From an uncultured Gemmatimonadales bacterium (lineage in GTDB: Bacteria; Gemmatimonadota; Gemmatimonadetes; Gemmatimonadales; GWC2-71-9): a stretch of DNA of 64,000 nt. The stretch is taken from the NCBI GenBank assembly GCA_963841505.1, contig CAWJCZ010000008.1, forward strand, positions 519,175 to 583,174, written 5' to 3'. The notes below the pieces were generated by a model that searched no databases, was not told where the DNA came from, and saw only the letters and a program-made list of their open reading frames with translations. This document shows, in pieces, positions 6,434 through 45,700 of this stretch. How positions within the stretch are numbered: position 1 is the stretch's first letter; each line of letters starts with the position of its first letter. A program made the translations under genes and the position numbers.

Positions 6434-7352
6434 ATGGGTATCCCTCGACTGATCGTCGCCGCGATCCTTCCCCTCGCGGCGGCCTGCTCGCTGACCACCG
6501 ATAGCACGGATTCGACCGAGCTGCTCGCCGCGTTTCAATCGGCTCCCTACGGCATGAGCAATGTGTCGAGCACTTTCGCCACCAGCGCCGACCAGGAGGG
6601 CACGGCGTGGGCGCCTCCCGGCCGGCCGGGCCACGAATTCGGCCCGCGGCGGTCCGGCGGGTGGTCCGATGGGGTTCATGATGGGAGGGCTGGGAGGCGG
6701 ATTCTTCGGCGGCCTGTTCGGCCCCCATTTCGGGAATCGTCCGGTGAGCGAAGACGGCGATGGCGGCGCCTGCGGCTTCAACAGCGGCAGCGGGCGAGTG
6801 GAGTGCGGGCCGGTGACCCGGGGTGGTCTCACCATCACCCGTTCGGCCCAGTACCTGGACGGAGCGGGCCAGGTGCAGAGCGGCTTCGACAATCAGACCA
6901 CGAACTCCATTAACACGCAGATCTCGGTCACCGGGACGATCACCCGGCGGGACAATGCCAGCACCGACGTGGACGCCTACAGCGACCGCACCGTCACCGG
7001 ACTCGCGGCCGGCAGCACCCAGCGCACCGTGAACGGCACCTCGCGGGGCCACGAGCTGACCACCGGCACCGACCGGACCGGCGATTTCACGGCGGAGCGA
7101 CTGGCCGGGGATACGGTCCAGAACGTGGTGATTCCGGTGGTGGGCGACGGGCGACCCGCGCTCCCCAGCGCCGGGACGATCATCCGGTCCATGATGGTCA
7201 CGGTGACCTACACCGGCTCCGACCCCCGCACCCTAACCCGGCGCGAGGTGGTCACCTTCACCGGCAACGGCGGGGCCACGATCACCATCACCCACAACGG
7301 CGAAACCAGGACCTGCACTCTCGCTCCCGACGCGCGGCCGAGCTGCTCCTAG
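6434..7352 (+). pseudogene. Secreted Gly-rich lipoprotein, reading frame broken once (about 6630-6665)
   Basis: The lipoprotein signal MGIPRLIVAAILPLAAACS (ATG 6434, GGAG upstream) is in the frame of ORF 6356..6913. That frame degenerates into Arg-rich nonsense. Coding-like sequence (GGPMGFMMGGLGGGFFGGLFGPHFGN...TVTYTGSDPRTLTRREVVTFTGNGGATITITHNGETRTC) continues in the frame of ORF 6561..7352. Confidence 0.55.
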
Positions 7353-9688
7353 GGCCGGGGCGCGAGCCGTCGGTGGAAGGACTGCACCGGAAGGAAGGCC
7401 TCCTCCCAGAGCTGCTCGAGGCGTTCGGCGAGGTCCGGGAGATCGAGGGGAAGCAGGGCCAGGGCCAGCTCGAGGCGATGCTGGCCCGGCTCCTGGGCCT
7501 CGGGCGTCGGGACCGGCCAGGCGGCGTGTCCGGGGCGCTCGGGCAGCCCGTCGCGGGTTAACTCTCCCACCCCCCGAAGGACGCTGATCAGCAGCACGCC
7601 GTGCGGGGTCCACTCGTACTCGAAGAACCCGGGAGCGAACACCGCGAGCACCCCCGCCGGTCCCTGGGCCGCGACAAAGCGCTGGGCCGGCGCGGTCTTC
7701 ACCTCCCGCTCGATGGCGGCGACCGGCGGGGCCTCCGGCACCGGGGCAGTCAGGTCCAGCCCGACCGTGCCGCCCGCGATCACCTTGCCCCGTCCTGCCG
7801 GGAAAGCCAGCCGGAGCCGGTGATCCGGCCCGGGATTCTGGAGGTCGATCCGCACGGTGAGCAGGGACGAGCCCGCTTGGAGCGCGGTCACCATGCGGGC
7901 GTCGAGGCGGCCGGACGGCAGGCGCACCGACCAGCGGGTTTCCAGCGCGCCGATGAGGCTTCCATTCGCGTGGATGGCCTGCCCGAGGGGCGAGATGGTT
8001 CCCTGCTGGGGCGACCCACCGGGCGAACAGGTGTAGAGATCGCCCTGGTCGGGCTCATCCACGAAGCGGAGCAGCCCTGCGAGGCTGGTTCCGGTGGTGC
8101 GGTCGGCCAGGGTGATGGACCCTTCGGGACTGGTTCGAGCCGCCACCAGCTCGTTCGAGATGGTATCGGGCGCCGAGACGAGGAGCGGCCCGTCGGCCGG
8201 GTCCGGGCTGGGAACCACCTGGAGGGTCGCCAGGCCTAACCCGGGAAGCTTCGGGGCGCGGACCGCGATCCAGACCCGGTCCACTTCGTCCTGGTCGGGG
8301 TAGCGATGGAGATCGTCGCGCCGTTCCTGGTCCCGGCGGACGGCGAGAACCTGGACCGGCAGCACCTGGCCGCCCGCGGTTCTGAGCCCGAACGGTGCGG
8401 CCCCCACCCCGGTCCGGGGAGTCCGGCCGTCCGGGGCGCCGACCAGAATATCCCGGCGAAAAAATGTGAGCATCGCGGTCACCACGCCGGCCCGTTTTCG
8501 TTTGACCGGATTCCACAACAGCAGGCGGCCTTCCGCGCCACCGGCGTCGTCTCCCGCGTCGAGCAGAGTGTTCACCGCCGCCTGGACCACCTCACGGCTG
8601 ATCGTGTTCACCGCCCGAATCCGGAGCGCCTGCTCCTGCTGGGCCTCGTCGCAGGTGGTTCCGGCGAGGGTGTCATGGAACTGGGATTGGAGCAGAATTT
8701 TCCAGGCCTGGTCCAGCGCGGGCGAGCGTCCCCCACCCCGGATCCGCGCGTCGAGCGGCTCCGCCACCCGGGCCAGCCGGAGCTCGGCGGCGCCGTGGGC
8801 GGCCTTGAGCCGGGCTCGCGCCGAGTGGGTGTCCTGGAGGTCCCAGGTGTAGCCGCGGCTCCGGCGAAGCGACCCGCGGATGACCGGCGCGACGGGCGGC
8901 TCACCCTCGACGGCATCGAAGTACTCCCCTAACCCGCTGATCCGGACCGCCCCCCCGGGCTCCAGCGCGGCCAGCCGGTCGCGGAGGACCGACACCCGGG
9001 GCACCATGGCGTGGTGGTCGGCGCCGAGAAACACCGCGAGATGGGGAGTCGAGGCGCGATCGATGAGCTGCTGCCGGATCCGCCGCCATTCGGTCGGCAG
9101 CGCCGGGCTTCCGGCGAGCCCGATGGCGTCGTCGTAGCCGGCCGGGGGAAGCTGGTGGGTCAGCAGGCTGGCCCCATCGGGCGACTCCCACCGGTAGAAG
9201 TCGCCGGGTCGCCCGAGGCCGCGCCGGATCACCGCGCGCCGAAACCCGAGCTCGGCGGCAATGGCGGGGAGCGCCGCGGGATGACCGAAGGCATCGGGAC
9301 TGTAGAGCACGTCGAGACACTTGCCGAATCGTTCGGCCGCCCGGCGGCCTTCGATCAGGTTGCGGCGGATGGAATGGGCCGAGGGCACCAGCAGGTCGGC
9401 CAGCACGTACCACGGCCCGATCTCGAGCGCGCCGCGTTCCACCTGGGCCCGGATCCGCGGCTCCTGCTCGGGACGAATGGCCAGGTAGTCCTCGAGCAGG
9501 ATGGTCTGCCCGTCCAGCAGGAACCGGGCATCGGGATCCGCCTCGAGCTGGTCGAGCACCTGGTCCAGCACCGGGACCAGGCGGGTCTGGAAAGCGGCCC
9601 GCGGCAAATACCACTCGCGGTCCCAGTGGGTGTGGGGAATGAGATGGAAGGTGTAGCCGGACGGGCGGACGGGCGGACCGGCGGACAG
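7349..9688 (-). CDS. Glycoside hydrolase family 38 (alpha-mannosidase-like)
   Basis: The track ORF 7349..9607 starts at TTG. It shows GH38 N-domain features (LLDGQTILLEDYL, EIGPWYVLAD, SPDAFGHP). The conserved GH38 metal-site motif HLIPHTHWDREWY is encoded in frame just upstream (9608-9649) of that TTG. I therefore extend to the only near-cognate start, CTG 9686-9688; the start is uncertain. Confidence 0.8.
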   Translation of the reverse strand: MSAGPPVRPSGYTFHLIPHTHWDREWYLPRAAFQTRLVPVLDQVLDQLEADPDARFLLDGQTILLEDYLAIRPEQEPRIRAQVERGALEIGPWYVLADLLVPSAHSIRRNLIEGRRAAERFGKCLDVLYSPDAFGHPAALPAIAAELGFRRAVIRRGLGRPGDFYRWESPDGASLLTHQLPPAGYDDAIGLAGSPALPTEWRRIRQQLIDRASTPHLAVFLGADHHAMVPRVSVLRDRLAALEPGGAVRISGLGEYFDAVEGEPPVAPVIRGSLRRSRGYTWDLQDTHSARARLKAAHGAAELRLARVAEPLDARIRGGGRSPALDQAWKILLQSQFHDTLAGTTCDEAQQEQALRIRAVNTISREVVQAAVNTLLDAGDDAGGAEGRLLLWNPVKRKRAGVVTAMLTFFRRDILVGAPDGRTPRTGVGAAPFGLRTAGGQVLPVQVLAVRRDQERRDDLHRYPDQDEVDRVWIAVRAPKLPGLGLATLQVVPSPDPADGPLLVSAPDTISNELVAARTSPEGSITLADRTTGTSLAGLLRFVDEPDQGDLYTCSPGGSPQQGTISPLGQAIHANGSLIGALETRWSVRLPSGRLDARMVTALQAGSSLLTVRIDLQNPGPDHRLRLAFPAGRGKVIAGGTVGLDLTAPVPEAPPVAAIEREVKTAPAQRFVAAQGPAGVLAVFAPGFFEYEWTPHGVLLISVLRGVGELTRDGLPERPGHAAWPVPTPEAQEPGQHRLELALALLPLDLPDLAERLEQLWEEAFLPVQSFHRRLAPRP

Positions 9689-9694
9689 GGGGAC
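9653..9694. repeat. Tandem octamer array, about 5 units (GTAGCCGG ACGGGCGG ACGGGCGG ACCGGCGG ACAGGGGG on plus strand)
   Basis: Read directly. It belongs to the same NGGCGGAC family as the arrays at 37132, 38971, 42718 and 44295 but in the opposite orientation relative to the flanking minus-strand genes. It lies between the TAG stop of the ferritin-like gene (9694-9696) and the GH38 conserved N-terminus. Confidence 0.85.
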
Positions 9695-11077
9695 TATTCC
9701 GCCAAGATGGAGAGCGGCCCGCGCTCTTCAGGGCGTAGGGCGGCCGGATGTCCTAACACGCGGCGGACCAGGTCGGTCCACCAGTCGCCCGGAGGCTCTC
9801 CGGTCCGATACCGCTCCAGCATCGGCCAGGTCTTGTCATGAATCGCTTCGCCCCGGGCCAGCGCGTCCTCCGGGTCGATCCTCTTCGTGCCGCAGCCAGC
9901 GGCGGCCGATCTGGGCGTGCAGGACTTCGTCGGCCCAGTCGTAGTCGTGGAAGTGGGCCGACAGATCATCGCCTGCCTCGACCGCGGTCCGGTATTCGAA
10001 TCGCTTCCCGGTCTCCCCCGGCATGAGCGACTGCTCGATGGCGAAGAGCAGGATCTGTCGCTCGAGCGGTGTGGCGTGGAGGTTGAGCCGGAGCGCAAAC
10101 CCGACGTTGAGCGGGATCCCGGTCCAGTCCACCCCGCGGGCCTCGAGCGCGACGCTGCCCATCATGGCGTGGCGGGTTTCGTCCCAGAGCTGCCGCGAGT
10201 AATCGAGCTGAAACTCCCAGGGCTGCTCGGGACGCTCCACCAGAATGGAGGCCATCATCTCGGGGACGTCCATTTCCAGGGTGCGCTTGGCGAGCAGGGC
10301 GAGGTTCCGCTCGTCGGCCGGCACCCGGGCATCGTTGTAGATCACGTGCGGGGGAAAATCGAACGCGTACTGTCCGGTAAACCGGTGGTCCCGCCGGGGA
10401 TGAAAGTCCGGGATGAACGGTTGTCGTGCCCGCGGGGCCGGAAGCTCCGCCGTCGGTGCGGAAGCCGGACCGGCGATGCCTCCCGCCGCATCGAGCCAGG
10501 CGCGGAGATGGTCCTGCCACTCCGTAACGACCGTGGCCTTGGGTCGATCCGCTCCGGTGAGGGCCGAGAGCGCCTGACGGCTCCACCCGAGCGCCGCCTC
10601 ATGATCCAGCAGCGCGGCCTGGAGAATGCGCCGGGTCGGCTGATCAACCAGCGGGTTACTCCGGGCCAGATGGTCGCGATACGCCGCGGCGAGGGCCTCC
10701 CGCAGCACCTGGTAGCTGCCCGCGAGGAGCTCGACATGGTCGGCGCTCCACAGAGCTTCCGCGAGCGCGCGGTCGAGGGATTCGTCCGGGGCGTGATCGA
10801 GTGGAGGAAGGGGATGCCGCATCTCGCCGATTCTCCGACGGAGGGCATCGGCGTGCAGACCGTCCTGCCACTGGTGCAGCGCGAAGCCACACTTGAGCTC
10901 CCACACGGGTTCCGCGGTCAGGTGCGACAGCAGGTCGCGCATCAACCACCGCTCGACCCACTGATAGCGGAGCAGGCGACGAACGGTCTCCTCCACCGCG
11001 AAGCCGATCCGGGCCGCGTCCTGATAGGAAGCGAGGCCGGCCAGCGGTGGAACGCCAAGGGACGGCGCTGCGCTCAT
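9694..11077 (-). pseudogene. Ferritin-like (putative di-iron) domain protein, reading frame broken once near 9870-9900
   Basis: ORF 9836..11077 (LWDETRHAMMGS..., FHDYDWADEVLHAQIGRRWL) ends in Arg/Gly-rich nonsense. ORF 9694..10098 carries a coding-like C-terminus (IDPEDALARGEAIHDKTWPMLERYRTGEPPGDWWTDLVRRVLGHP). The family assignment is weak. Confidence 0.5.
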
Positions 11078-37131: not shown

Positions 37132-37171
37132 GTCCGCCCGTCCGCCCGTCCGCCCGTCCGCCCGTCCGCCC
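37132..37171. repeat. Perfect tandem octamer array (GTCCGCCC)x5, plus a partial unit running into the stop codon at 37174-37176
   Basis: Read directly. The minus strand reads TAG-AC(GGGCGGAC)n. Confidence 0.95.
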
Positions 37172-38970: not shown

Positions 38971-39026
38971 GTCCGCCTGTCCGCCGTCGCGCCTGTCCGC
39001 CTGTCCGCCTGTCCGCCTGTCCGCCT
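38971..39026. repeat. Tandem octamer array, 7 units (GTCCGCCT x5, GTCCGCCG, one degenerate TCGCGCCT)
   Basis: Read directly. It fills almost the whole 59-nt spacer between the kinase stop (39025-39027) and the ATG of the PD40 lipoprotein gene (38963-38965). Confidence 0.95.
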
Positions 39027-41730
39027 ATTTCCTGCCCGTGAGGCCTTGGAGCCAGTTCTCCGCCACGATCAGCTCGCTCTGCTGGGTGGCCTCGCCCTCC
39101 CGCACCATGAGAAAATGCCGGTCGTCGGGGGCGAGCGAATACAACGGAATCGGGCCAGTCTGGATGTACTGCGCGACCGAAAAGAGCGTGCGTTGCTTGC
39201 CCACGGCAAAGGTCGGACCCGGCGGAATCTGGACGTCGATCATCTCGTTCCGCCCGTTAATGTAGAAGAGCTCGCGGCCACTCTTCGCCCAGGTTGGGGC
39301 GCTGCCTCCCGCCGTGGAGACCTGCCACTTGGCGGAGGAGGTTTCCGGGAAGGGGCGCACGTAGACTTCGAATGCCCCCGATTCGTTCGAGGAGTAGGCC
39401 AGCCAGCGGCCGTCGGGCGAAAGCGCCGGGTGGAATGACTGTGCCGAGCTCGCGACCAGGGGCACGATCGTGGTGTCGGGCAGGTGCATGCCCACGATGC
39501 GGGGAGTGCCGGCACCGGGTGGTGCCGTCCGAAGGAGCAGCCACTTGCCGTCCCGGGAGCCGACCACCTGCCCGTAGTCGTCGTCCTTGGTGGCCTTGAG
39601 CAATCTGGCCGCCCCGGTACCGTCGGCGCGGTGCGCGTAGGCCGGCCCCACGCCGGACCCGGATCGGTCATTGACGTAATAGACCTCGCGACCATCCGTC
39701 GACCAGGAGGGTCGCACCGCCGAAGTATCGCCGAAGGTGATCCTGGAAAACGGCCCATCCGGAAGCTGCTTGACCCAGATGTCGCGGCGGCCGTCGCGCG
39801 CAAGGCCCACCGCGATAGCCTTCCCGTCGGGCGAAAGTGAGGTCGACTCGATGACGCCCTGTGGGTCCCACGCCGGGTCCACCGGTGTGACCCCGCCTTC
39901 CATGCTCACCCACACGGCGCGGCGGGAGACCAGCGATCCGCCCGTGCTGTACGCCAGGGTGCCATTCCCGGCCAGAGTCAGGTCGATGTTGAATCCGCCG
40001 TTTCGCATTCCCACCCCTTCGAGCAACGCGATCGGCGCACCGGTGACTTCGAGCTTTCCGGGATCGAACGGGAGGGCGATCAGCTTCCCCTCGGCGGTGA
40101 CCACCAGGAGATGACCGGTCTTCGCATAGGTCGCGTAGATCCCCCGGACCAGGGTGTGGCCCAGCTCGCGGGGTTTGGGTGGGAGCGGCGCGGCCATGAT
40201 TTCGAAATCGGAAACCCCCTGGCCGGCGTGGCGCACCCGGAAAATGACGCCTTTTCCTCTCGGGAGCAGCTGAGGCCACTCGGTCGCGATCTCGTTCTTG
40301 TCAGGGTGCACGGTGTACACCGGCTCGATCTCGCCGCCCCCGGCGCGCATCCGGGCGATTCCCGAATCCACCTCGAAGTAGATGAAGCCATCTTCGCCCC
40401 ACGTGCCCCCGGTGGTGTTCGCCTTGTCGGTCAGGGTGATGGTGGGTGCACCCGCGAGTGAAGCGATGCGAATCGCGGTCCCGCCCTTCACGAAGGCGAC
40501 ACGCTGGCCGTCCGGAGAAAAGAACGCCGTGCCTGCTCCTTCGGTACCCATCATCGGTGTGCCATCGAGCTGATCGAGCCGGCGGATCCAGAGGCGGTTT
40601 CCCCCCTCGGCGGGACCACTGTACACCAGGGTCCGCCCGTCAGGAGAAAGGGCGAGGCGCGATCCCCCGGTCGGAAGCGGCGCCTGGAGTCCCTGGTTGG
40701 TGCGAAGCCCCAGGCTGAACTGGGTGAGCGGCGCCGCTGGTGCCGACCGGCTCCAACCCCAGATCGCGGCCGCCGTCACCACGATGAGGCCGAGCAGGAG
40801 GGCCGGGACCAGGAACCGAGGCAAGCCGCGCTGCGACACCTGGGCCATCGTTGTCTGCTGGGTTCCCCCGCCAGGCACGGCGCTCGAGATTCGGTATCCC
40901 GGATTCCTGAGCGCCTCGGCGAACTCCGCCGCGGTGGCGAACCGGTCGGCCGGAAGCTTCTCCAGCGCGGTCAGCACTGCCGCCTCGATGTGGGGCGGAA
41001 TGGTGTGTCGCTGGGGGATGAGCGGCCGGGGGCTCTCGGTCACGACCCGCGCCACGATCGCCTGCGCCGTGCTTCCGGTGAACGGCGGGTCGCCGGTGAG
41101 CAATTCGTAGAGCACGACGCCGAGGGCATAGATATCCGAACGGGCGGTGATCTCCCGCTCGCCCATGGCCTGTTCGGGACTCATGTAGTGCGGGGTGCCG
41201 AGGCTCATGCCGGTTTCGGTCATCCTGGCGCCGCCTGCTTTGCTGGCGGCGAGCGCGATGCCGAAATCGGCGACCTGGGCTCGGCCGTCGTGGAGCAGGA
41301 TGTTCTCCGGCTTGATGTCGCGATGGACCACCCCATGGCGGTGGGCATAGTCGAGTGCGTCCGCCACTTCTGCTGTGATTCGCACCGCTTCGCTGACCGG
41401 GAGCTGCTTTTCCCGGGTGACGCGATCGCGGAGCGATTCACCCTCCACGAACGGCATGACGTAGAAGAGATTGCCGTCGACTTCGCCGGAATCGAACAGC
41501 GGCAGGATATGGGGGTGCTGCAGGTTGGCCGTCAGTTTGATCTCGGCCAGGAAGCGTTCCGCGCCGATGACCGCGGCCAGCTCGGGACGCAGGACCTTGA
41601 GGGCGACCCGACGGTTATGGCGCACGTCTTCGGCCAGATAGACGGTGGCCATGCCGCCGGCGCCGATTTCGCGCTCCAGGCGATACCGGTCCGCCAGCGC
41701 GGACTGCAAACGGCCGATCATTTCCGGCAT
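39025..41730 (-). CDS. Ser/Thr protein kinase fused to C-terminal TolB/PD40-like beta-propeller (paralogue of 33802..36465)
   Basis: 901-aa ORF. Its glycine loop is GAGGMATVY, with VALKVL, HRDIKPENILL, DFG and SPEQ motifs, then a TM segment and PD40-like repeats (SPDGRTLVY, SPDGQRVAF, SPDGKAIAV, STDGREVYY, SPDGRWLAY). Confidence 0.92.
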   Translation of the reverse strand: MPEMIGRLQSALADRYRLEREIGAGGMATVYLAEDVRHNRRVALKVLRPELAAVIGAERFLAEIKLTANLQHPHILPLFDSGEVDGNLFYVMPFVEGESLRDRVTREKQLPVSEAVRITAEVADALDYAHRHGVVHRDIKPENILLHDGRAQVADFGIALAASKAGGARMTETGMSLGTPHYMSPEQAMGEREITARSDIYALGVVLYELLTGDPPFTGSTAQAIVARVVTESPRPLIPQRHTIPPHIEAAVLTALEKLPADRFATAAEFAEALRNPGYRISSAVPGGGTQQTTMAQVSQRGLPRFLVPALLLGLIVVTAAAIWGWSRSAPAAPLTQFSLGLRTNQGLQAPLPTGGSRLALSPDGRTLVYSGPAEGGNRLWIRRLDQLDGTPMMGTEGAGTAFFSPDGQRVAFVKGGTAIRIASLAGAPTITLTDKANTTGGTWGEDGFIYFEVDSGIARMRAGGGEIEPVYTVHPDKNEIATEWPQLLPRGKGVIFRVRHAGQGVSDFEIMAAPLPPKPRELGHTLVRGIYATYAKTGHLLVVTAEGKLIALPFDPGKLEVTGAPIALLEGVGMRNGGFNIDLTLAGNGTLAYSTGGSLVSRRAVWVSMEGGVTPVDPAWDPQGVIESTSLSPDGKAIAVGLARDGRRDIWVKQLPDGPFSRITFGDTSAVRPSWSTDGREVYYVNDRSGSGVGPAYAHRADGTGAARLLKATKDDDYGQVVGSRDGKWLLLRTAPPGAGTPRIVGMHLPDTTIVPLVASSAQSFHPALSPDGRWLAYSSNESGAFEVYVRPFPETSSAKWQVSTAGGSAPTWAKSGRELFYINGRNEMIDVQIPPGPTFAVGKQRTLFSVAQYIQTGPIPLYSLAPDDRHFLMVREGEATQQSELIVAENWLQGLTGRK

Positions 41731-42717: not shown

Positions 42718-42749
42718 GTCCGCCGGTCCGCCGGTCCGCCTGTCCGCCC
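42718..42749. repeat. Tandem octamer array, 4 units (GTCCGCCG x2, GTCCGCCT, GTCCGCCC)
   Basis: Read directly. It occupies the convergent spacer between the TGA at 42710-42712 (plus-strand gene) and the TAG at 42749-42751 (M14 peptidase). Confidence 0.95.
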
Positions 42750-45700
42750 TATTTCTCGTCGAGCTTTCGTCCCACATTCAGGTTGTCGAAGTGCATGATG
42801 GTGTTGAGCACCAGCGGGTAGCTTCCGATCGTTTCGCCCCGCCACATCGGATTGATCGCGAAGAGCACGACGTGCCCCTTGTCCTTCGGCGCGTCCACCA
42901 CGATGGGCCGCTCCGCGATCTCGCTGCCGCCATCGAGCAATCCCGACACCAGGAGATCCCGTTGCGCGCTGAACCGGAGCGCCACCCGGGGACGCTGATC
43001 CGGCGGAATGATGTTGATGGGATTCCGGAGCTGATCGTTGGTGAGCGGCACCCGTTCCCATTGTTCCGCCGTCGGCCGAGCCGGCAGCTCGAACTCGGGC
43101 GTGAGTGCGGGCCGTCCCTGCACCACATCGGGATCGTCCTGGGTTCCCCTCCCGGTGGGCCGGGAGTTGGACCCGCCGAACCGGCCGCCCCGGCCGCCGC
43201 CCAGCGTGTTACCGACCGAAAGACTCGACCCGTCATCGCTGTACACCGCCAGGCTGTCGCCGACGCCGTACACGATTGGGCTCGTCGCATCCACGATTCG
43301 AGAGCGGAGCAGGGTGCCCACGACCCGGGAACGGCCTGGCCCGTTGGTCGAAACCCCGCTGGCGAGTCCATACTGGACTGCGAGTTCCGCGGTGTTCGCG
43401 ACGCCGACCAGCACGCCACCCTGGGACACGAACCGCTGGAGATTGGCCAGGCCGGTCCATCCTAACCCGGGGCGCACGTCGTCGGTCTGGGCCCAGGTCC
43501 CGAGGTTCGGGGTTTCCGGGGTGTTCTTCCAGGGCATCGGATTCCGCCACATCGGGAGGCCCTGCACGATGGTCTGAAGGCCCCCGCCCGCCGGGGGAAA
43601 GAGGATCACGTCGTATTTCGCATTCAGGTTGTCGTTCTTTGCGACCTCCTGGGTACTGATGTAGTCGAACGGGATGCTCAGGAAGTCGAACGCCTGCCGC
43701 CACCAGCCTTCGGTCTGGGTGCCGAGCCAGGTGTGCAGTATGGCGACCCGGGCCGCCCGCACCGGGTGGGTCTTCACCGTGGGCGCCGTGGCCAGTCCGT
43801 ACCCGGTCAACCCAAGCTCTCTGGTCGCTCGATCCAGATCACTCGCCCCGACCCCGCGGATCAGGAACGTCCCGCGGGCAAATTTCTTCCCCGCCGCCTC
43901 GAACGGTTCTTCGGCAGACTGGATGTCGGCGTCCTTGAGCCGGTAGCGGAGCGTCGCGAGGGCGTTGTCGCCGTTGGCATTGATGGCGACCACGCTCCCG
44001 CTGCCCTGCACGCTACCCGGCGGATTCACCGGACCGCTGATCGCCGTCACCGGCACGCGAAGCACCGTGGTGTCGGTCACCCGGAGCGCCTCGACCGCGA
44101 ATCCCTCCGGGAAGGTCCAGCCGGTGTCATCGTAGGGCGTCTTCTGGGGATCGTCCGGAGCCCAGTACTGGTAGTCGAGCAGCGCGTCCGCGATGCGGGA
44201 GTAGGGCTGGTCCATCCGGATGATGTACGACCCGGCCGGGAAGCTCTTCGACTCGGTCTTCTTCGCGGTATCGGCCTTCACCGCGGTACTGTCGGTCCGC
44301 CGGTCCGCCGGTCCGCCGGTCCGTCGCTTCACCGCCACCTGCACCGTAAACGGAGCATTCGCGCGCGAGATCTCCACGTGCTGCTTCTGGAGGATCCGAA
44401 GCAGCTCCGCCTGGGCCCCGGGCCGGCGGGTTTCCCCGGTCAGGACATAGGCGGCGGGGCCTTCGGTATGCGCCTTGAGCACCGAGCGCTTGCTCTTCTG
44501 GTAGAAGTTCCTGAGGATGAGCTCCTTGTTCTGGGCGATGTAACTGAGTGAGACCAGCAGGCCGGTCTGCTCGTAGTTGTTGTTATTGCGGAGCGACCAC
44601 TTGACCCGGGGCAGCGGGGGATTCTGGCGGTACCAGGTGCGCGAGGTTTCCCCGGGAGAGAGGGTGCGTTCCAGGGTCTCCGCGCTGCCGCCGTTCCCGA
44701 AGGTTTCGTAGAGCCGGCTGATCCCATTGTGAGTTGCGGCCATGAACATGAGGTAGCCGGGCGACCAGGTATCGAAATTCCCGAAGGCAAAAACCCCGGG
44801 CATCCCCATCCGGGTCATCTCCTGCACGTTGTTCCAGCCGATCATCTGCCACTCGTTGGTCAGCAGCGGATCCACCCATGCGTTGTAGGGACCGTCGCCG
44901 ATGGTGTTGTCGTAGAGGTAGGCGACCGATTCATGCAGATCGTGAATCACCTGCGCCTTCCAGTCCACGTAGGTGTTCAGCACGTTCTGGGTCAGCTTCA
45001 GCGTCATCCCCATCGCGTCGCGATTGTTGTCGTGCGCGACGTAGTGCCCCCAGTAGATCAGGTTGGGCCAGGTATCGTCGGGATGGGCCTTGTGCCAGTT
45101 GTAGATGTCCACCACCCGGTCGCGCCCATCCACCTCGACGATCGGCGTGATCAGCGTGATGACCTTATCGCGGATGTTCTTGAGGTACGGACTTTCGTCC
45201 ACCGCGAGACGGTAGGCCAGCTCCATCAGAGCGGTGGGGGCGCCGGCTTCGGGAGAGTGGATCGTGCCGGTGATGTAATACACCGGCGCCGCCGTCGCCG
45301 CGATCCGGGCCGCCTCGGCGTCGTTCATGTTGATGGTCCGCGGGTCGGCCAGCCGGGCGAGGTCCGCCTTGTTGGCATCGAGGCGGGCCATCAGCGCCTC
45401 CGAGGCCACCGCCACCGCGATCATCTCGCGATTCTCTTCGGTGCGCCCGATCGAATAGACCCGCACTCGCGGGCTCGCCTTGGCGAGCCGTCGCATGTAG
45501 TCGTACACCTCGGTGGAATAGGGAAGCTTGCCCGGCGCCCCGGCGATGTCCCCCAGGACCACCGTCGGGGTCGGCACCGTCTTGGAGGCCGGTAAATAGT
45601 TGACCAGGGGAGAGAGGAAGAAGGGTTCGGTGGTGTACTCCAGGATCTTCTTGGTGTACGCCTCGTCGATTGGCTGACTCGGACTCCGGCCCGGCACGAC

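Follow-up and report, generated by a model that had tools for sequence, protein, structure and literature searches.

The window analysed here is a stretch of 64,000 nucleotides (nt) from an uncultured Gemmatimonadales bacterium, and all coordinates below refer to it unless a contig is named. A gene of the GH38 alpha-mannosidase family lies in it on the minus strand, directly behind a ferritin-like gene of the same orientation, and no canonical start codon precedes its conserved N-terminus. The source genome (G000) is a soil long-read metagenome bin of 13 contigs and 3.28 Mb, with 66% G+C and 84% completeness; the GH38 copy of the window is labelled L001, and its protein in the database P0001. 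The upstream gene, ferritin-like or DUF455-like according to a weak Pfam match to DUF455, covers 9694..11077 in two open reading frames (ORFs, 9836..11077 and 9694..10098). It ends with a TAG at 9694..9696, and the ...LSILAE that precedes this stop fits the C-terminal ...L[KRS]I[IL]AE of its orthologues. The split results from an insertion of 1 nt near 9882 (9877-9886, GAAG-A-GGATC, the extra base being probably the A at 9882), at a place where orthologues read ...WLRHEGIDPE... without a break, and only some 190 nt away from the site where the GH38 start is missing.

The GH38 frame is open from an in-frame TGA (9728..9730, minus strand), reads RARAALHLGGIVPLSAGPPVRPSGYTFHLIPHTHWDREWY with the motif HTHWDREW at 9634-9611, and continues as ...GGIVPLSAGPPVRPSGYTFHLIPHTHWDREWY over 2.3 kb. 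Its first ATG, GTG or TTG is the TTG at 9607-9605, downstream of HTHWDREW. Automatic gene calling picked this TTG, and the resulting database copy, P0001, is 752 amino acids long with the N-terminus MPRAAFQ...; such a product is devoid of HTHWDREW, which is included only if translation begins at a non-canonical codon further upstream. The initial annotation had stated that no canonical GH38 start precedes TTG 9605-9607. This is borne out, with every coordinate, and now extends to the three frames, none of which contains an ATG, GTG or TTG in the open stretch ahead of the motif (closing stops at 9730, 9755 and 9696). Consequently, no single insertion or deletion, and no gain or loss of 8-nt repeat units, restores a normal start. 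A GTG at 9781-9779 is unusable for GH38 because the TGA at 9730-9728 closes the frame behind it. The near-cognate codons available in frame are ATA 9697-9695, CTG 9688-9686 and ATT 9640-9638. This CTG is the sole one from the upstream stop to the conserved N-terminus, at a spacing of 5 nt behind the TAG, and is the most likely initiation codon; the coding sequence that we propose (7349..9688, minus strand) runs from it to the stop codon at 7351-7349, through 779 codons without internal stop. The ATA overlaps the upstream TAG (ATAG), like the ATGA/GTGA overlaps of L006, L007, L008, L018, L019 and L118, and is a weaker alternative.

Membership in GH38 rests on profile matches to both the N-terminal catalytic domain (PF01074, 5e-33, 115 bits for a cut-off of 25) and the middle domain (PF09261, 1.4e-8, 35.1 bits for a cut-off of 31.1); the best solved relatives are 3LVT and 5KBP (4e-58). 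The Pfam GH38N alignment begins, at profile position 2, with the residue directly preceding HTHWDREW (9611..9634), the motif itself aligns to residues 14-21 of 3LVT, and solved GH38 structures have it at residues 14-18. HTHWDREW therefore belongs to the protein, in line with its earlier identification as the N-terminal metal-site motif of GH38; it is predicted to be needed for the fold and the metal site. The mannosylglycerate hydrolase equivalog of NCBIfam, NF007331, scored 238.9 bits, below its cut-off of 1138. Some sources give homologues that name, and the window protein is best regarded as only a family relative of mannosylglycerate hydrolase.

We then compared the start region with that of homologues. 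HTHWDREW is found in all 99 homologous loci with a match, and in 95 of these a canonical start lies 7-39 codons before its first His, most often 10. The motif is therefore, as far as these loci tell, always inside the protein, and the position equivalent to the TTG (9605..9607) is never the start; the prospect that orthologues might lack HTHWDREW and begin there is thereby dismissed. Within the genus (26 genomes in all), GH38 is present in 22 of the 25 other genomes, in conserved synteny behind the ferritin-like gene and at 52-64% identity to the window copy; one of these genomes was added by a wider search of the genus, and its GH38 has an ATG. Among genus orthologues, the upstream stop and the conserved N-terminus are 2 to 88 nt apart. 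Whatever this distance, the canonical start, in all 19 genus orthologues that have one, is situated between -4 and +11 nt from the upstream stop, with six ATGA/GTGA overlaps. A start held near the upstream stop despite such a variable spacer is the geometry of translational coupling. The window pair has the features of coupled pairs, namely the same strand, conserved synteny and a candidate start a few nt from the upstream stop: its CTG at +5 has the same spacing as the ATG of L016 (TAA CCCGC ATG), and is close to that of L015 (TAG CCGTCC ATG).

The 38-nt spacer that separates the upstream stop from the conserved YTFHL is filled almost wholly by an octamer array. By pattern search the array consists of 5 units, GTCCCCCT GTCCGCCG GTCCGCCC GTCCGCCC GTCCGGCT (9655-9694, minus strand), the first G being the G of the upstream TAG; Tandem Repeats Finder reports a period of 8 and 4.6 copies at 9658-9694. 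Searching the genome with a 21-nt pattern of the array and at most 2 mismatches gave 103 matches, versus 19 for a control, so that its presence at GH38 is not due to chance. The genome holds 89 (GTCCGCCN)n arrays of at least 3 units, on both strands and most with exactly 4 units; they often come as facing pairs, and many adjoin the ends of long ORFs. We are thus dealing with a dispersed family of tandem 8-nt units, present many times per genome and typically in four units, and the array at the GH38 start is an ordinary copy of this dispersed simple repeat, not specific to GH38.

Some additional observations were made on this family. Further arrays are present in the window at 37132-37171, 38995-39026, 42718-42749 and 44295-44326, and one array of the genome has 12 units (contig C8, 430077-430172). 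Where two arrays face each other on opposite strands, at 40-190 nt, they could form long hairpins, as for 39897-39928 and 39971-40002 on contig C2. A tRNA-Met (CAT) gene of G000 (contig C6, 320861-320935) adjoins two facing arrays, at 320750-320781 (minus strand) and 320817-320848 (plus strand). At the GH38 junction itself, a GGCGGA with which the upstream gene ends may base-pair with a UCCGCC of the array (9681-9704, minus strand), which makes a small predicted hairpin enclosing the TAG and the CTG.

The array had been described in the initial annotation as sitting where the start codon should be. This holds for the window, whose spacer it fills. In orthologues, the start stays beside the upstream stop and the array comes behind it, translated as an N-terminal extension. 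Octamer repeats translated after the ATG were found in L004, L007, L009, P0006 and P0025, with extensions MNSSARPPVRPSG- in L004 (followed by LTFHL), MTLPPARPPVRPPDR- in L007, MSFPPSRPPVRPTF- in L009 and MTPPVRRSAGPPVR- in P0006. The MSFPPSRPPVRPTF extension is identical in L009 and P0018, on branches of about 0.3 each, which indicates that a translated array can be stably retained. Other repeats occupy the same junction: a heptamer, (CCCCTGA)x4, puts a TGA in every frame in L005/L109, and (CTCACCT)x5-9 is translated as SHLSPLT repeats in L111 and L116. The stop-start junction seems, from these sequences, to be a general hot spot for simple repeats, beyond the octamer.

The window copy is not alone in being startless. 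We found seven intact startless GH38 copies: L001, L002 (genome G018), L005 (= L109), L110, L111, L115 and L116. Four of them (L110, L111, L115 and L116) were spotted through database proteins truncated like that of the window. Their ORFs are all intact and full-length (763-783 amino acids); L042 is startless as well, with a broken ORF. The seven intact startless rows require 6-7 independent changes when placed on the protein tree. A single ancestral loss common to the window and L002, whose genome is the closest to that of the window, was considered and rejected, the trees placing L002 as sister to the ATG-bearing P0003 and the window on its own. Among the CTG triplets of the spacers of startless copies, 8/12 are in frame (P=0.019, the rows being not fully independent), and in L001, L002 and L115 an in-frame CTG stands at +4 to +10 nt from the upstream stop.

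Of the 120 best database homologues, six (P0001, P0056, P0060, P0064, P0078 and P0084) begin past HTHWDREW, their truncation being due to the lack of a canonical start ahead of the motif; they correspond to the automatic calls for the window, L005/L109, L110, L111, L115 and L116. P0066 (649 amino acids), which starts still further in, is probably the called product of the startless L002, judging from sequence and contig size. Three other candidates, P0068, P0072 and P0073, were discarded as startless copies, upstream canonical starts or a frameshift being present.

The pair L111 and L116 is the most informative. Although drawn from separate assemblies (ENA and JGI), the two loci have a common 5' end, (CTCACCT)n followed by TTT CTG AGC CCT CTC ACC TTC CAC, and their N-terminus reads (M)SPLTFHL, typical of the family, with CTG in place of ATG. 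The corresponding N-terminal stretch predicted for the window protein is SAGPPVRPSGYTFH. In L111, no canonical start is found anywhere in an open stretch of 76 codons. The two proteins are 71% identical, with a synonymous divergence (dS) of 0.76 and a ratio of nonsynonymous to synonymous divergence (dN/dS) of 0.28; a startless GH38 has thus long been kept under purifying selection, which speaks for translation of such copies from a non-canonical codon. The shared CTG AGC holds a near-cognate codon kept across a diverged pair; for the window, the nearest relative is 63-64% identical. A scan of metagenomes for the startless 5' end of L111 and L116 returned only the contig of L116 itself, and the protein collection searched contained no second copy from the window species, the window protein being a singleton with its next match at 63%.

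We also looked for signs of decay in the window copy. Its dN/dS against orthologues is 0.30-0.41, and pairs with normal starts give 0.23-0.34. At columns that are invariant otherwise, it carries 6 singleton changes, the range being 0-21. With neither an internal stop nor a frame break, and with a constraint within the orthologue range, the gene does not look like a pseudogene, and no decay is visible in its sequence. Had the start been lost very recently, neither the ORF nor these measures of constraint would show it.

We propose that the window encodes a functional GH38 protein whose translation would start at CTG 9688-9686, or at a different near-cognate codon, through a restart that follows the upstream stop; we rate this proposal at roughly even chances. 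According to it, the canonical start would have been lost, and the spacer would now consist of one copy of the genome-wide octamer repeat, the gene still encoding a working enzyme. Ribosomes terminating at TAG 9696-9694 would reinitiate 5 nt further on, at the CTG (translational coupling), with ATA 9697-9695 a less likely start than the CTG. The product, (M)SAGPPVRPSGYTFHLIPHTHW..., would be an enzyme of 779 amino acids, probably made at a low level. The data support directly that a canonical start is absent, that the ORF is intact and conserved, that start position in orthologues follows a rule and that a startless copy has persisted in a related lineage. As to mechanism, we infer that the ribosome uses the CTG and that this use is driven by coupling. 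The gene has in common with those known to use near-cognate starts that no canonical in-frame start exists upstream of a conserved segment that is required. The initial annotation had opposed a near-cognate or coupled start to a destroyed start and a dead enzyme; neither alternative falls, and the comparative evidence tilts the balance towards the former.

Several points weigh against this proposal. CUG makes up 0.024% of annotated bacterial starts and has about 0.86% of the efficiency of AUG in E. coli (PMC11497404), and in mycobacteria CUG was not selected as a start, unlike ATT (PMC4633059). The initiator tRNA of the genome is normal, with G29-C41, G30-C40 and G31-C39 in its anticodon stem, so that no special tolerance for CUG is predicted. 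The CTG arises at the junction between repeat units (..CCT|GTCC..), so that the repeat itself partly accounts for its presence. Should the upstream gene truly be frameshifted, ribosomes would stop at 9838-9836 and coupling would be lost. The lineage of the window has no close relative (nearest at 63-64% identity, terminal branch of 0.46-0.49), and the sister of L002, P0003, has an ATG, so that the losses in L001 and L002 are not one ancestral event. Finally, GH38 is dispensable in the genus, as three of the 25 other genomes (G003, G009 and G015) have no match and L006 and L016 have internal stops.

Special features of the translation apparatus or of the messenger were sought as well. An altered, CUG-tolerant initiator tRNA was rejected given the three canonical G-C pairs. 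So was an unusual anti-Shine-Dalgarno sequence, since the 3' end of the 16S RNA has the canonical CCUCC; the only pairing candidate is a weak GGCGGA, 9 nt before the CTG. The predicted fold around the start is no more stable than that of shuffled sequences (z = 0.29). A bolder idea, which we regard as unlikely, is that ribosomes of this clade that finish the ferritin-like gene may restart on GH38 largely whatever the codon, which would make of this lineage as a whole a natural case in which reinitiation is efficient at CUG, or relaxed as to the codon. Such a restart would explain both why the start is tied to the upstream stop and how repeats could overwrite the ATG at least six times without death of the gene; the repeats would then be tolerated as a translated N-terminal spacer.

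Other explanations have to be set against the proposed CTG start. In a scenario of recent inactivation, which we hold to be somewhat unlikely, repeat turnover would have removed the start on the window's own branch, leaving either no product or only the 752-amino-acid TTG form without its metal-binding residues, and further damage would not have accrued yet. The intrinsic weakness of CTG as a start speaks for it, together with the confinement of the loss to a terminal branch without close relative, the loss or breakage of GH38 elsewhere in the genus in the genomes and loci just cited, and the frame break in the neighbouring upstream gene. It accounts poorly, however, for seven startless copies that are otherwise intact, for the startless state that L111 and L116 have kept at a dN/dS of 0.28, and for a window copy without excess of changes at invariant positions.

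The break in the upstream gene, some 190 nt away, can also be read as a sign of assembly error. In a long-read bin of 13 contigs whose consensus is poor in patches, an ATG or GTG could be concealed by a miscalled base or a mis-built repeat, and of the four startless loci found first, three (L001, L002 and L042) do come from long-read-like bins. Yet the errors that are seen are insertions or deletions, which can neither create nor expose a canonical start in any frame, and it would take a substitution or a larger mis-assembly to do so; moreover the 2.3-kb GH38 ORF is itself unbroken, and short-read assemblies have startless copies too (L005/L109, L111, L115 and L116). An artefact at this locus looks to us improbable. 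As for a phase-variable switch, in which the number of 8-nt units would change by slippage and the window would show the OFF state, its attraction lies in the layout of the orthologues, where the repeat directly follows the ATG as in a contingency locus and one unit shifts the frame. In the window, however, no frame has an ATG, GTG or TTG before the motif, so that no number of units gives an ON state; arrays favour 4 units genome-wide, and N-termini derived from arrays can be stable, as with the identical MSFPPSRPPVRPTF of L009 and P0018. The probability of such a switch is very small.

If CTG-coupled initiation is true, this locus would be a natural and recurrent example of non-canonical restart in bacteria, and would illustrate how start codons can be erased by fast-evolving simple repeats while function is kept. 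There is also a consequence for annotation: automatic callers truncate these GH38 proteins, and the entries then look like inactive enzymes. In terms of data quality, this contig carries consensus errors, and single-locus oddities in it need the support of reads.

Bacterial genes with near-cognate starts (CUG, AUU or AUA) are known, for example infC with its AUU start. The window gene resembles them in having no in-frame ATG, GTG or TTG before a required N-terminal segment and a near-cognate codon at the expected position; it differs in that this codon comes from the junction of repeat units rather than from a conserved regulatory design, and the case is made here from sequence. Termination followed by reinitiation at overlapping or adjacent stop and start codons (ATGA/TGATG) occurs in trp operon genes and in the coat gene and the lysis gene of RNA phages. 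The likeness lies in the orthologue starts at -4 to +11 nt, with their six overlaps, and in the window CTG 5 nt after the TAG; the differences are that the restart codon of the window is non-canonical and that its coupling is deduced from geometry. In the contingency loci of Haemophilus and Neisseria, simple repeats stand just past the start codon. Orthologues of the window gene share with them a repeat with a unit length that is not a multiple of three between the start and the body of the gene, whereas the window has no start codon in any frame, and no polymorphism in unit number was observed.

Dispersed repeats of a comparable kind are known from Xanthomonas and Nostoc, with the G-rich 7-nt units GGGNATC and GGGGA(C/T)T; they are enriched in non-coding DNA, either upstream of ORFs or no more than about 50 bp from stop codons (Rehm et al. 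2015, PMC4692102). Both families are simple and dispersed, and both prefer four units; our 89 arrays are mostly of 4 units and many of them lie at stops. Here, in contrast, the unit is of 8 nt (GTCCGCCN / NGGCGGAC), its C-rich strand is the sense strand at GH38, and the array is translated in orthologues. Near-cognate starts, coupled genes and dispersed simple repeats are thus each of a known kind; the broader point is the recurrent and tolerated loss of a start codon at a hot spot for repeats.

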